Shown: positions 35,177 to 38,171 of the stretch, in pieces
Position numbering within the stretch: position 1 is the stretch's first letter
Layout of the letters: every line of letters starts with the position of its first letter
Assembly: GCA_045807565.1 (NCBI GenBank)
Contig: JBJMHD010000060.1
Coordinates: 1 to 58,940, forward strand
DNA: 58,940 nt
Direction of reading: 5' to 3'
From: Acidimicrobiales bacterium
Lineage (GTDB): Bacteria > Actinomycetota > Acidimicrobiia > Acidimicrobiales > VFJN01
Notes under the pieces: model-generated
What the model was told of the DNA's origin: nothing
The model's input: the letters and a program-made list of their open reading frames with translations, nothing else
Databases searched by the model: none
Made by a program: the position numbers and the translations under genes

Positions 35177-37753
35177 TCAGTCGCGGGACTGGTTGTCGCC
35201 GACGGCCCGCCGCGGCTCGCGGGTGAACCGCACCACCTCGCTGCCCAGATCGATGCGACGCACGTTCTGCCGCGTCAACCACGCCGTGAACTGCTCGGCG
35301 GGCAAGGCGCGACTGAAGAGGTAGCCCTGCGCCTCCTCGCACCCGTAGCCGCGCAGCAGGGCTTGGGCGTCGGCGCTCTCGACGCCTTCGGCCACGGTGC
35401 GCAGGCCGAGGCTGCGGCCCAGCTCCACGAGCGTCCGGACGATCACCGCGTCCTGGTCGTTGACCGTCATCGTCATCACGAAGGACTTGTCGATCTTGAG
35501 CTCCGTGACCGGCAGGTTCCGAAGGTGCGTCAGAGACGAGTACCCGGTGCCGAAGTCGTCCACCGAGAGGCGCACGCCGAGGGCCTTGAGCCCTTCGAGC
35601 ACCACCTTCGACCGGTGCGACTCGCCCATGACGGTCGACTCCGTGAGCTCGAGCGTCAGCACGTGGGGCGGCAGGCCGGCCGTCTCGATCGCCTCGCGGA
35701 TGTCGTCCACCAGGTGGCGATCGAACAGGTTGCGCGCCGACAGGTTCACCGACACGTGCAGGTCGTGCCCGGCGTCGCGCCACGTCCGGCACTGCTTCAG
35801 CGCGTTGCGCACCACGTAGATCGTCAGCGGGCGGATCACGCCGGTGTGCTCGGCGGCCGGGATGAACTGGTCGGGCGACAGGAAACCGAGGCGGGGATGG
35901 TCCCAGCGCACGAGCGCCTCGGCGCCGACGACCATGCCGTCGCTCAACGACATCTTCGGCTGGACGTACACGTCCACCTCGTCGGCGTCGAGGGCCTCCT
36001 GGAGGTCGGCGGCGAGCGCCAACCGGCGGGGCGCGTACGGATCGGTGTCGGCCGCGTAGACCTCGATGCCCGACCCTTCCTGACGCGCGCGGTACGTCGC
36101 CGCATCGGCACGCTGCAGAAGGAGCTCGGCGGTCGCGGCGTGCTCCGGGTAGAGCGCGATGCCGATGTTCGCACCGAGCACGAGGGACACGTCGCCCGAG
36201 GTGAAGGGCGACTCGAACTCAGCCAGCACCACCTCAGCGAGCCCCACCAACCCGTCGTCGTCCGACACGTCTGTGACGAGGACCGCGAACTGGTCGCCGG
36301 TGAACCGCGCGAGCTGGGCGCGCTCGGGGAGGAGGGCTTGGATGCGGTCGCGCACCTCCTCCAGGAGGCGGTCGCCGGTGGCGATGCCGAGGGTGTCGTT
36401 GACCTCCTTGAAGGTCACGAGGTCGACGAACACGAGTGCGACCTGGTGGTTGGTGGCCCGGGCCTCGGCGATCGCCGTCTCGAGGCGCTCTTGGAGCATG
36501 GTGCGGTTCGGCAGGCCCGTGACCGGGTCGTGCAGGGCCTGGTACGCCTTCTCCTGGGCATCGTGCTGCAGGGTCGCGACGAGGCGGCCGTTGGCCAGGG
36601 CGACGTTCGCATGGTTGGCCAGCGTCTCGAACAGCCGCAGGTCGTCCTCGACGAACGAGCTGACCTCGGTGAGCCGGTTGGCGACGACCATCGCACCGAC
36701 GGTGAGGCCGTCGTTGGTGAGCGGCACGATCGCCGCGTCCTTCACGCCGATCTCCCCCAGCCACCCCGGCAGCGGCTCCCCAGGCATGTGGAGCCGCGAT
36801 TGGTTGTCGGGGAGCAAGAGCGAGAGGTCCGAGCTCAGCTGCTGCGGAGACACATTGGAGCGGATGACCTCGTCATGCCGGAAGAGCACCCGGCTCGCTT
36901 GCACGCCCTCGCGGATCGGCGGCAGCAGCAACGCCACGTGCTCCCCGCGAAGGATCTCTCGAGCCCCGATGGCCACCGCCTGCTCGAGCTCGTCGATCGC
37001 CGATGTGTCCCCCAGCGAGCGCGTGAAGTCGTGGAGCGTCTCGAGGTCCTTGTGACGCTCGCTCAAGCGCGTGTAGGCCCGGTGCAGGCCGAAGAGGACC
37101 GCCCCCACGACACCCACCAGCAGTCCCAGGTAGGACTCGTTCCACAGGGAGCCGACGAGGATGATCCCGACAGTCGTGTTGGCGAACGCAACGATGCCGC
37201 CGACGAGCAGCACCTGCTTGATCATCCGGCCGCCGGGGAAGCCGCTGAACACCGTGATCGCCAGCGTGACGAGCGCAGCCGACAGCAGGTAGGCGGCAAG
37301 GTTCGCCGAGTAGATCGCCGCCCAGCCCGCTGGGTCTGCCGGCGACGTCCCGTCGATCATCGTGTGGAAGACGAGGCACGCGACGGCCGCCTCCACGCCC
37401 ATCATCGCCACGTTGACGACGAGCTTGTGGAGCGATTGGCGACGTACGAGCCCGTTCACCGCGGCCATCGAGAGCACGCGGCCGAAGACGACGTTCGTAG
37501 GGGAGGCGAACGCAAGCGCCACCACGTACGCCAGCTCGACGAAGTTGACCGAGTGCGCTTCGCTGCGGGACTCGATCTCGACCGCAAGTAGCTCTGCGGC
37601 GACGAAGGCCGCGACCACTCCGATGAGCGGAAGGTGGAACGGGGTTCCAGGGAGGTAGCCGATGCCGTGGAGCGGACCGACCAGCGCTGCCGCAGTGATC
37701 GCGAGGAGCGGCACGACGAGCGCAACCGTCCGCTGCGCCATCTGGCGAGTCAT
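35177..37753 (-). CDS. Membrane-anchored GAF-GGDEF(degenerate)-EAL protein, probable c-di-GMP phosphodiesterase
   Basis: Multi-TM N-terminus; HDPVTGLPNR; GGDEF site reads TGDQF; intact EAL, VNLS, ELTE, DDFGTGYSS, KIDKSF, AEGVE, QGY. Confidence 0.92.
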   Translation of the reverse strand: MTRQMAQRTVALVVPLLAITAAALVGPLHGIGYLPGTPFHLPLIGVVAAFVAAELLAVEIESRSEAHSVNFVELAYVVALAFASPTNVVFGRVLSMAAVNGLVRRQSLHKLVVNVAMMGVEAAVACLVFHTMIDGTSPADPAGWAAIYSANLAAYLLSAALVTLAITVFSGFPGGRMIKQVLLVGGIVAFANTTVGIILVGSLWNESYLGLLVGVVGAVLFGLHRAYTRLSERHKDLETLHDFTRSLGDTSAIDELEQAVAIGAREILRGEHVALLLPPIREGVQASRVLFRHDEVIRSNVSPQQLSSDLSLLLPDNQSRLHMPGEPLPGWLGEIGVKDAAIVPLTNDGLTVGAMVVANRLTEVSSFVEDDLRLFETLANHANVALANGRLVATLQHDAQEKAYQALHDPVTGLPNRTMLQERLETAIAEARATNHQVALVFVDLVTFKEVNDTLGIATGDRLLEEVRDRIQALLPERAQLARFTGDQFAVLVTDVSDDDGLVGLAEVVLAEFESPFTSGDVSLVLGANIGIALYPEHAATAELLLQRADAATYRARQEGSGIEVYAADTDPYAPRRLALAADLQEALDADEVDVYVQPKMSLSDGMVVGAEALVRWDHPRLGFLSPDQFIPAAEHTGVIRPLTIYVVRNALKQCRTWRDAGHDLHVSVNLSARNLFDRHLVDDIREAIETAGLPPHVLTLELTESTVMGESHRSKVVLEGLKALGVRLSVDDFGTGYSSLTHLRNLPVTELKIDKSFVMTMTVNDQDAVIVRTLVELGRSLGLRTVAEGVESADAQALLRGYGCEEAQGYLFSRALPAEQFTAWLTRQNVRRIDLGSEVVRFTREPRRAVGDNQSRD

Positions 37754-37847
37754 CAGCACCGGGAAAGCCAACCGTCCGGCCACCCCGGAGTCAACCGGGC
37801 TAAACGACCTGTTCAGAGGCCAGAAATGGGTCTGGGAGGAGACGCGA

Positions 37848-37875
37848 CGAAGCCCTGGCACACGCCAGGGCTTCG
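37848..37875 (-). terminator. Perfect 12-bp stem-loop between the peptide gene and the EAL gene
   Basis: cgaagccctggc-acac-gccagggcttcg; followed on the minus strand by pyrimidine-rich TCGCGTCTCCTCCC, with no true U-tract. Confidence 0.7.
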
Positions 37876-37900
37876 GATTGCTCTGAGAGCTAGTTGACGA

Positions 37901-38017
37901 TCAGCGCCAGGCGTTGCCGCGCCAGGCGTTGCCGCGCCAGGCGTTGCCCCGCCACGCGTTGCCACGGCCGCCCCACTCGACGCCACGCCCACCCCACTCA
38001 ACACCGATCTTGTTCAT
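37901..38017 (-). CDS. 38-aa Trp-rich tandem-repeat peptide MNKI(GVEWGGR)2(GNAWR)4
   Basis: ATG at 38017, TGA at 37901; AAGGAG 8 nt upstream; repeat copies differ only at synonymous positions; absent from the ORF track. Confidence 0.8.
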   Translation of the reverse strand: MNKIGVEWGGRGVEWGGRGNAWRGNAWRGNAWRGNAWR

Positions 38018-38142
38018 TGCACCCGCTCCTTGGTGGTTTGAATTCCCAGCCCGTTTGGGATCATTTGGTCCGAACACTCACCGTGACCCACAGGACCTTC
38101 ACACACCCTGCTTTGTCACCAGTCAGCGACTCACTGACGGTG

Positions 38143-38171
38143 ACCATACGGCGACGCCCCGAGCCCCGCAA
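38143..38171 (-). promoter_or_regulatory. Putative housekeeping-sigma promoter of the peptide gene
   Basis: TTGCGG-N17-TATGGT on the minus strand, about 125 nt upstream of the ATG. Confidence 0.55.

Follow-up and report, generated by a model that had tools for sequence, protein, structure and literature searches.

What does a 38-codon gene built of tandem repeats do directly upstream of a membrane protein of cyclic diguanosine monophosphate (c-di-GMP) turnover? The question is raised by a 58,940-nucleotide stretch of Acidimicrobiales DNA (assembly GCA_045807565.1, contig JBJMHD010000060.1; 'the window' below means this whole stretch), in which a minus-strand open reading frame (ORF) encodes MNKI, two GVEWGGR heptapeptides (the head) and four GNAWR pentapeptides (the tail), 38 residues with 6 Trp. 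The next co-oriented gene 3′ of it, spanning 35177..37753 on the minus strand with its ATG at 37753, was described in an earlier sequence-only reading as encoding several transmembrane (TM) segments followed by GAF, GGDEF and EAL domains; Pfam, NCBIfam and hydropathy analysis agree, and we call its product the sensor. The answer that we favour, and regard as an even call, is that the peptide serves as the cognate ligand, or ligand precursor, of the sensor's membrane domain. The two genes and their parts are:

37901..38017, minus strand: micro-gene, 38 codons plus stop, ATG at 38017 and TGA at 37903-37901 (read from the sequence and its relatives)
37964..38005, minus strand: head, two GVEWGGR heptapeptides, invariant columns in the alignment of relatives
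37904..37963, minus strand: tail, four GNAWR pentapeptides, a 15-nt tandem repeat (Tandem Repeats Finder: period 15 nt, 4.0 copies)
37073..37753, minus strand: N-terminal domain of the sensor, about eight TM segments, MASE9-like (hydropathy and positive-inside rule, by hand)
35177..37072, minus strand: cytoplasmic part of the sensor, with linker, GAF, degenerate GGDEF and intact EAL (Pfam, NCBIfam)

Whether the ORF is a gene at all is best judged from its relatives. A DNA search of 41 related genomes matched the ORF start in 15 of 24 same-genus genomes, all of the same design on translation, and a sixteenth same-genus genome with the micro-gene was recovered via its sensor. The species-genome collection held 17 loci, every one in a metagenome-assembled genome (MAG) labelled Acidimicrobiales, Microthrixaceae or a higher rank, and 13 metagenome proteins share the ORF architecture. 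About two dozen more members came from protein collections, where they are unnamed or 'hypothetical' throughout and often have a wrong upstream start; automatic annotation misses such genes or calls their start wrongly. The set comprises 23 distinct versions of the small ORF (sORF) in MAGs labelled Acidimicrobiales or Microthrixaceae, with 11 metagenome loci besides. In a profile search of 401 genomes of the order, full-length members were confined to the window's family (by genus 4/4, 1/1 and 0/3), to which a pattern search added one genome outside that family, G029. Recurrence of this architecture is far beyond chance. The elements described in the sequence-only reading, namely the ORF, an AAGGAG site, a TTGCGG-N17-TATGGT promoter-like element, a 12-bp hairpin and the third-position differences among repeat copies, are all present, and the minus-strand ORF at 38017..37901 is on these features a conserved gene with its own predicted promoter, Shine-Dalgarno site and terminator. 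The frame is closed by a stop 20 codons 5′ of the ATG, and the N-terminus of the peptide has no hydrophobic segment. Pfam (E-values up to 0.1) and NCBIfam searches of the window peptide gave no match, and look-alikes in the ESM Atlas (best score 0.78) were uninformative. The G+C content of the window is 71%.

In all relatives the N-terminus is short, GVEWGGR is present in one to three copies and the pentapeptide in two to six identical ones, and the stop comes right after the last unit; in every clean relative the stop falls at a unit boundary. The head is the invariant part of the peptide. The tail unit follows the pattern G-x-x-(W/L/M)-(R/K) and varies between species, its copies being identical within each: GNAWR, GNSWR, GNTWR, GQSWR, GNGMR, GMNLR, GNALK, GLQLR, GGHLR, TGHLR, GGVLR, GLHLR, GNTLR, GGSLR, GGTLR, GISLR, GQNLR, GGILR, GNGIR and others occur. 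Trp is therefore not a constant, Leu or Met taking its place in most relatives, and the number of units is labile between close relatives, ranging from 2 to 6. The dispensability of Trp and the invariance of the head had not been foreseen in the sequence-only reading, nor had the degenerate GGDEF domain and the BldD-box-like operators described below. When the back-translated head pattern was run against the 401 genomes, six matches outside the sORF clade and G029 translated to the head motif; these were rejected as micro-genes, as they sit inside ORFs of 329-611 aa, four of them predicted membrane proteins. Four loci of other families (L119, L122, L124, L125) encode large polytopic membrane proteins with GGGVEWGGR(F/Y) at the start of a TM segment, a likeness probably due to chance. 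In two metagenome gene calls, P0015 and P0045, the micro-ORF continues in frame into the sensor, P0015 carrying five GQHLR units with no stop after them; these could be a real fusion, read-through or sequencing error.

Selection on the peptide in this frame, which the earlier reading had deduced from window repeat copies that differ only at third codon positions, is borne out across relatives. Among 43 head units, differences from consensus number 83 synonymous and 2 nonsynonymous, both of the latter Val to Ile. Tail copies within genomes show 82 nucleotide differences, all synonymous, against a chance expectation of ~28% for the synonymous share; these come from the 18 of 23 distinct sORFs with perfect repeat tails, which were selected by regular expression, so that for them the zero nonsynonymous count holds by construction, and what is informative is that 18/23 tails are perfect and have accumulated 82 silent differences. 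Of the remaining five sORFs, three come from frameshifted long-read assemblies, a fourth contains one additional Asp codon, and the fifth is truncated at the edge of its contig. In the long-read MAGs (L006/L060, L010/L059, L012/L055) the tails are frameshifted into long spurious ORFs, likely by assembly indels in the repeat, because the neighbouring oxidoreductase gene is also frameshifted in one of them. Taken together, these counts support a micro-gene that encodes a real peptide under purifying selection in the ORF frame.

The gene order oxidoreductase, micro-gene, sensor is found in every locus with enough sequence. sORF and sensor occur together at 22 distinct loci, two more ending at a contig edge just past the micro-gene, and no orthologous sensor with an assembled upstream region was found to lack the sORF. 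Two genomes, G006 and G020, keep the flanking oxidoreductase and lack both micro-gene and sensor, G020 also keeping the 316-aa gene on the far side. These two belong to the same-genus genomes that the DNA search did not match; in another two of that set the contig carrying the sensor breaks off at the repeat or hairpin, and the remainder are incomplete or hold distant paralogues only. Because the two genes are present together, and absent together where the flanks are intact, they behave as one cassette, in line with the tie to the membrane EAL protein that had been suggested from the window alone.

This joint inheritance bears on the idea that the function of the peptide lies elsewhere and that it adjoins the sensor only by descent from a protease tail. 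Being cationic, leaderless and rich in Arg and Trp or Leu, it might be an antimicrobial or otherwise membrane-active peptide; alternatively it might be a miniature pentapeptide-repeat protein, as a profile search aligns the tail with the canonical members P0020 and P0024. The resemblance to the pentapeptide-repeat family (PF00805) extends to the period of five and to a central hydrophobic residue followed by Arg and Gly. However, family members have at least ~8 A(D/N)LXX units, whereas the units here, which vary in number from 2 to 6, would not go beyond one and a half turns of a pentapeptide helix; the residue two before the centre is Asn, Gly, Leu or Gln and not a small one; and the peptide has, as noted, no Pfam match. 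A function apart from the sensor would also leave unexplained the strict joint presence and absence and the co-variation with the TM domain shown below, and no conserved immunity or transporter gene was found next to the micro-gene among related loci. We therefore consider an unrelated function very unlikely.

The tail unit co-varies with the membrane part of the sensor. Across 23 loci, distance between tail units correlates with distance between TM domains (Mantel r = 0.35, p = 1e-4), also when GAF distance is controlled for (partial Mantel r = 0.355, p = 1e-4) or two near-duplicates are removed (r = 0.26, p = 0.002), whereas no such correlation is seen with GAF distance (r = 0.03, p = 0.37); L178 and L179, which have no GAF sequence, and L052 were excluded from this set. 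The nearest TM neighbour carries the same unit in 11/12 taxa, the nearest GAF neighbour in 3/12. By these statistics the peptide tail and the TM domain appear to change and travel together, reshuffled relative to the rest of the sensor. In the first 18 loci, pairs with the same unit differed by 0.05-0.21 in the TM domain and all other pairs by at least 0.31; the strong claim that the same unit always accompanies a conserved TM domain was withdrawn after the metagenome loci were added, and the closest pairs with different units now stand at a TM divergence of 0.26-0.28. Co-folding of sensor residues 1-430 with the peptide scored 0.02 against a mark of 0.32, a result that bears neither way on binding. 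A separate observation concerns mosaic sensors: compared with L066, the TM domains of L014 and L184 group with those of GNSWR/GNAWR loci and their GAF domains are almost identical to that of a GGHLR locus (divergence 0.03-0.10), a mixture that implies recombination between the TM-coding and GAF-coding parts.

Where does the unit come from? Weak profile matches to the tail alone led to S8 proteases with long C-terminal arrays of Trp pentapeptides (for example alternating GLEWS and GNSWR; GLEWA with GHAWR; WNGNS; SWTGN), encoded directly 5′ of TM-GAF (or PAS)-GGDEF-EAL genes whose TM domain is homologous to that of the window sensor. Searched with a profile of sensor residues 1-430, 104 of the 401 genomes of the order contained homologues, and 64 sensor-homologue loci outside the micro-gene clade were examined. 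Small ORFs with pentapeptides or tailed large ORFs turned up repeatedly in this upstream search, which the sequence-only reading had put forward as a check. At 35 of the 64 loci a large ORF ends in (G-x-S/A-W-x)n at ~0-211 nt from the sensor start (among L082, L083, L085, L086, L097-L101 and L141-L177; arrays of up to ~60 copies), and at two loci small secreted precursors lie upstream. All four tail-bearing large ORFs that were checked, plus P0022, are Peptidase_S8 by Pfam and show sub-threshold similarity to mycosins; three of these five have an N-terminal signal anchor and two (genus g66) have none. Every Trp unit of the protease tails contains W-x-G. The statement in the sequence-only reading that such GxxW tails occur on S8 proteases near EAL genes thus proved true (35/64 loci tailed; five checked, all S8), and so did the suggestion of a stand-alone version: the micro-gene resembles a free-standing protease tail, and on sequence this is its best description.

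The two loci with secreted precursors provide a third carrier. G029 has the closest outgroup sensor (43% identity) and the same oxidoreductase upstream; its locus (L095, contig C141, reverse strand, ~950-1320 of the reverse complement) consists of a promoter, three tiny ORFs and the sensor gene. The first tiny ORF encodes 14 residues ending in GVEWGGR, with its stop 2 nt before the next ATG. In each of the other two, which encode 36 residues, a basic N-terminus leads into a hydrophobic stretch, an Ala-x-Ala site comes next, and GNSWH stands last before the stop; a hairpin comes after them. The precursor of G025 (L107, contig C21) is a small ORF that encodes a hydrophobic leader and two GASWD units with an Arg ahead of each; 146 nt separate its end from the sensor. 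The signal peptides of both precursors were judged by eye. No relative of the G029 signal-peptide precursor was found among 5.8 billion proteins, and a pattern search of the window's own genome found no signal-peptide precursor ending in a Trp pentapeptide. What the window's own genome does hold is contig C14:1-2392, whose first letters already lie within a (GTSWQ)n array; ten or more copies are present before a stop, and ~35 nt past that stop begins a protein of 734 aa in which GAF, PAS and histidine kinase domains follow a MASE9-like TM domain. This is probably a further protease-tail module, its protease lying on another contig. By homology the constant association is that of the pentapeptide with this membrane input domain, whatever the carrier or output, and the comparison of loci shows the micro-gene module as a leaderless member of a wider Acidimicrobiales family.

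The prominence of proteases invites a reading centred on them, in which the repeat primarily serves S8 proteases as substrate, tether or inhibitor and the role of the sensor is to monitor or dock the protease, roughly as a c-di-GMP receptor can hold a periplasmic protease; the stand-alone peptide would then be a decoy or competitor for the tailed protease that is probably still encoded at contig C14. Such a reading accounts for the commonest carrier, since most repeat carriers are large tailed ORFs, and it draws on the adjacency or overlap of the protease and sensor genes, on the tail-type repeat beside a homologous sensor kinase in the same genome, and on the Arg or Lys that ends every stand-alone unit and could be a cleavage site. 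It does not explain the protease-free formats: G029 and G025 make units without an adjacent protease gene, and in the sORF clade, where the protease is gone from this locus, the peptide is still under selection. Nor does a single topology fit, as two of the five inspected proteases have no signal sequence. We regard it as quite unlikely.

We place the cognate-peptide reading first because only it fits all of the following at once: the selection on identical units, their species-specificity, the labile copy number, the three carrier formats, the constant link with one membrane domain and the co-variation with it. Labile copy number fits a multi-copy precursor better than a fixed fold, and two of the three carrier formats would place the unit outside the cell. 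The suggestion in the sequence-only reading that the unit itself is the signal has gained weight, from the predicted secreted precursors of G029 and G025 and from the co-variation of unit and TM domain. Tentatively, and as a possibility short of a probable one, Trp/Leu pentapeptides of Acidimicrobiales could be species-specific signals, carried in three interchangeable formats (S8 protease tails, signal-peptide precursors and leaderless micro-proteins) and read within the membrane by the MASE9-like domain, which would set c-di-GMP hydrolysis or kinase activity; peptide and receptor would then diversify jointly, as 'pherotypes'.

Several observations weigh against the cognate-peptide reading. 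At 27 of the 64 outgroup sensor loci no such peptide gene lies upstream. Three GNAWR loci differ from one another by 0.26-0.36 in the TM domain, no less than from a GNSWR locus, and TM divergence is 0.36 for the GISLR pair and 0.41 for GLHLR across two genera. Physical linkage alone could yield the co-variation of unit and TM domain, the TM-coding DNA lying ~250 bp and the GAF-coding DNA ~900 bp from the tail. The ratio of nonsynonymous to synonymous substitution rates (dN/dS), compared between the TM and GAF parts of the sensor, is <0.3 with dS saturated (~1-2), and no positive selection is evident. For the window micro-gene we found no conserved exporter or signal peptide, and beside it no conserved processing enzyme; Pfam scans of the ORFs within ~5 kb revealed no enzyme modifying ribosomally synthesized peptides, so that the absence of both a signal peptide and such an enzyme, remarked on in the sequence-only reading, stands. 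Lastly, the ligand model leaves the invariant head unexplained, the separate 14-codon head ORF of G029, which has no signal peptide, suits a regulatory leader better, and a hairpin stands between micro-gene and sensor in the manner of an attenuator. The last points require a closer look at the flanks of the micro-gene:

38166..38171, minus strand: -35-like hexamer TTGCGG (read from the sequence; TTGnnn at the same place in relatives)
38143..38148, minus strand: -10 hexamer TATGGT of TANNNT type, 17 nt from the -35-like hexamer (read from the sequence)
38018..38136, minus strand: putative 5′ untranslated leader of ~120 nt, with conserved blocks including a second half-palindrome (20-locus alignment)
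38026..38031, minus strand: Shine-Dalgarno sequence AAGGAG, 8 nt 5′ of the ATG
37848..37875, minus strand: terminator-like hairpin with a 12-bp perfect stem and 4-nt loop, then TCGCGTCT; starts 25 nt past the stop
37765..37794, minus strand: conserved element TTGACT-N15-GGTTGGCTT, between hairpin and sensor start, of putative regulatory function

A strict sigma-70 and terminator scan called neither the micro-gene promoter nor the hairpin, the latter because its U tract is poor, and both assignments rest on conservation across loci. A TA-N3-T element lies 122-143 nt 5′ of the ATG in 21/22 loci and is invariant in the 20-sequence alignment; the predicted transcription start marks the 5′ end of the leader. 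The leader is non-coding, because its reading frame is interrupted by an indel relative to the close metagenome relative P0005. All 20 listed sORFs have a GGAGG-type site 5-9 nt 5′ of the ATG and, past the stop, a hairpin of -18 to -33 kcal/mol. Between hairpin and sensor, the element with consensus TTGACy-N15-GGTTssCTT is present in 13 of the 21 loci with enough downstream sequence and has a single occurrence in the genome; it could serve as a promoter for the sensor itself or as a binding site. Its second part is unlike a TANNNT -10, which makes a site for an alternative sigma factor or a regulator possible.

On this layout the micro-ORF might be a cis-acting leader peptide, its translation, notably that of the GVEWGGR head, stalling or pacing ribosomes and so setting read-through of the hairpin or downstream expression. 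The peptide would then have no target, and what is controlled would be the sensor here and the secreted-pentapeptide ORFs in G029. Both the position of the ORF before the sensor, with a strong hairpin 25 nt past its stop, and a head that is invariant across two families in the way of an arrest peptide agree with this, as does the 2-nt spacing in G029, which suggests translational coupling; in the protease-tail loci, too, the repeat ends 0-211 nt before the sensor start. The likeness to the trp leader, an amino-acid attenuator leader peptide, is plain in a short Trp-rich ORF followed by a terminator upstream of a gene. Here, however, Trp is not conserved and the codons are not amino-acid specific, Trp giving way to Leu or Met in most species; the peptide sequence is selected and co-varies with a protein domain; and the centroid fold of the micro-gene/hairpin region contains no competing antiterminator pairing. 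An Rfam scan of 37000-39000 (E-values up to 1) gave no family, only two chance matches on the hairpin, and the promoter-like element past the hairpin in 13/21 loci does not suit an attenuator. Pacing of ribosomes needs no tail units that are identical within a genome, different between species and matched to a TM domain; moreover, such units also stand behind signal peptides and on proteases with signal anchors (3/5 inspected), where they form part of proteins. A leader thus explains head and hairpin, not the tail, and we hold it unlikely as an account of the locus.

The promoter region of the micro-gene also contains operator-like palindromes:

38267..38279, no strand assigned: distal palindrome CCAC-N5-GTGG, 5′ of the -35 element (pattern search)
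38220..38232, no strand assigned: second palindrome CCAC-N5-GTGG (pattern search)
38131..38143, no strand assigned: perfect BldD-box-like site TCAC-N5-GTGA, TCACCGTCAGTGA, overlapping the -10 and the likely transcription start

The site at 38131..38143 fits the published BldD box consensus TNAC-N5-GTNA (PMC4151990), and the two near-boxes lie upstream of it. In the locus alignment the site overlapping the -10 is conserved, and equivalents of the CCAC-N5-GTGG palindromes are visible 5′ of the promoter in related loci. The pattern YCAC-N5-GTGR occurs 268 times in the 3.5-Mb genome, with three occurrences within 250 bp only at the micro-gene promoter. On contigs C49 and C137 the genome encodes two BldD-like proteins, each with the PF21179 BldD C-terminal domain and the c-di-GMP-binding signature RXD-X8-RXXD, which reads RGD-X8-RRDD in both. 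A box at the promoter and a homologue bearing this signature are the sequence features of a BldD regulon, and binding is predicted from them; repression of the micro-gene by a c-di-GMP-bound BldD-like protein is probable, and the cluster of boxes hints at c-di-GMP feedback. Other pairs of the operator motif, on contig C90 and at window position 54810, are found 3′ of a murA-like gene or within a kinase gene.

Is the micro-gene expressed? The end of the leader and the head, 37958-38095, are matched at ≥99% identity by one contig of a soil RNA library, though DNA carry-over is possible, and a second covers 37651-37821 at the 5′ end of the sensor. This is a weak hint of micro-gene expression. DNA contigs of the soil runs break at the repeat and the hairpin.

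What kind of receptor would the sensor be? Its TM domain is the fastest-evolving part of the protein. Hydropathy along the alignment gives a topology of eight TM segments with both ends of the domain cytoplasmic; the cytoplasmic loops are the most conserved part of the domain and hold the motifs ESRGEAH, RRQSxHK and FSGWPG, whereas variation in the sensor is greatest in TM1, TM4 and the predicted outer loops. The EAL domain is intact (Pfam E 5e-69), with EALVRW and DDFGTGYSS in 11/11 sORF-linked orthologues and ELTE, KIDK and EGVE also read from the sensor translation. The GGDEF domain is still recognised by its fold, but its active-site motif reads TGDQF in 11/11 orthologues in place of the GG(D/E)EF of active diguanylate cyclases. 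Because the GGDEF motif is degenerate and the EAL motifs are intact, phosphodiesterase is a fair name for the protein as judged from its motifs. MASE9 (PF20972) is, like the TM domain of the sensor with its buried Glu, Arg and His, an integral-membrane input domain with intramembrane charged residues, found fused to c-di-GMP enzymes; the accessible text of the paper that describes it names no ligand and proposes binding within the membrane (bioRxiv 10.1101/2021.11.05.467447). The similarity of the sensor family to it is sub-threshold only. No MASE9 match was obtained in the N-terminal 260 residues of the sensor at E-values up to 1, the L082 homologue and the C14 kinase score 20.1 and 22.6 bits against a gathering cut-off of 24.3, and hhalign of the sensor-domain alignment with the C14 domain gives a probability of 89.8% (E 1.8e-6). 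The TM domain of the sensor may be a sister family of MASE9.

From these parts a mechanism for the cognate-peptide reading can be proposed. The micro-gene would be transcribed from its own TANNNT-type promoter, translated from the strong Shine-Dalgarno site and ended by the hairpin. The pentapeptide unit would be the specificity element, acting as part of the whole peptide or after cleavage behind each Arg, and would be recognised by the eight-TM, MASE9-like input domain; the leaderless peptide could act from the cytoplasmic face, within the membrane, or after export by another route. Recognition would alter EAL activity and with it the level of c-di-GMP, and a c-di-GMP-bound BldD-like repressor on the micro-gene, predicted from motifs, would close a feedback loop.

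Several known systems offer points of comparison. AgrD/AgrC of staphylococci and ComX/ComP of Bacillus pair a peptide pheromone with a polytopic membrane receptor and fall into specificity groups. As there, a small gene for a ribosomal peptide adjoins a multi-TM sensor, and peptide and N-terminal TM domain vary together over a conserved, reshuffled cytoplasmic part, a likeness that is here statistical and confounded by linkage; the paralogous module of this genome even ends in a histidine kinase. In contrast, the output of the window sensor is an EAL phosphodiesterase and not a kinase, the peptide is leaderless and made of identical tandem units, and no AgrB- or ComQ-like maturation gene is present, the neighbours being the oxidoreductase, the sensor and the 316-aa gene. 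Phr pentapeptides of Bacillus are made with a Sec signal peptide and a C-terminal pentapeptide, matured by subtilisin-type proteases and re-imported to bind cytoplasmic Rap proteins. The five-residue unit, the precursors of G029 and G025 with a signal peptide and one or two terminal pentapeptides, and the prevalence of S8 subtilases as unit carriers recall this system, whereas the linked partner here is a membrane domain and the window peptide has no signal peptide. MgrB, a small protein that modulates the membrane sensor PhoQ, likewise combines a micro-protein of <50 residues, encoded near a membrane sensor or acting on one, with a feedback loop; it is of the single-TM helix type, unlike the Gly/Arg-rich, repetitive window peptide, which has no hydrophobic helix.

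Set against these systems, the finding amounts to a peptide cue and polytopic receptor with an unusual carrier, tandem units that also occur as protease tails, and an unusual output, c-di-GMP hydrolysis. The open-access literature searched on pentapeptide-tailed subtilases, small proteins acting on c-di-GMP enzymes, and MASE9 describes no such module. To our knowledge, and by narrow literature searches, there is neither a peptide ligand for a MASE-type domain nor a direct route from a peptide cue to c-di-GMP, and the locus would, if the wider reading of species-specific pentapeptide signals is true, provide both. As the ligands of MASE input domains, in c-di-GMP enzymes and kinases alike, are largely unknown, it offers a concrete candidate, with an encoded pentapeptide that can be read beside each receptor and with natural non-cognate pairs. 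It further points to undescribed peptide signalling in widespread uncultured soil actinobacteria, suggests a possible role for the odd Trp-pentapeptide tails of S8 proteases, and illustrates how the tail of a protein can turn into a micro-gene of its own.

The remaining neighbours of the cassette are of lesser consequence. Upstream on the same strand, 38345..39667 (minus) encodes a flavin adenine dinucleotide-linked oxidoreductase with an ALO domain (TIGR01679; G+C at third codon positions 0.95). An overlapping plus-strand ORF of 498 aa was rejected as the real upstream gene, since codon-position G+C favours the minus-strand gene. A MacB/FtsX neighbour was rejected as a dedicated exporter because, the window's own locus aside, only 3 of the 17 species-genome loci searched have it. 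Past the sensor, 34223-35173 (plus strand) encodes the 316-aa protein, which has a weak PI3/PI4-kinase-like Pfam match and ends in RYPWPLV; its gene adjoins the sensor in many families, and in the cassette-less G020 it adjoins the oxidoreductase.

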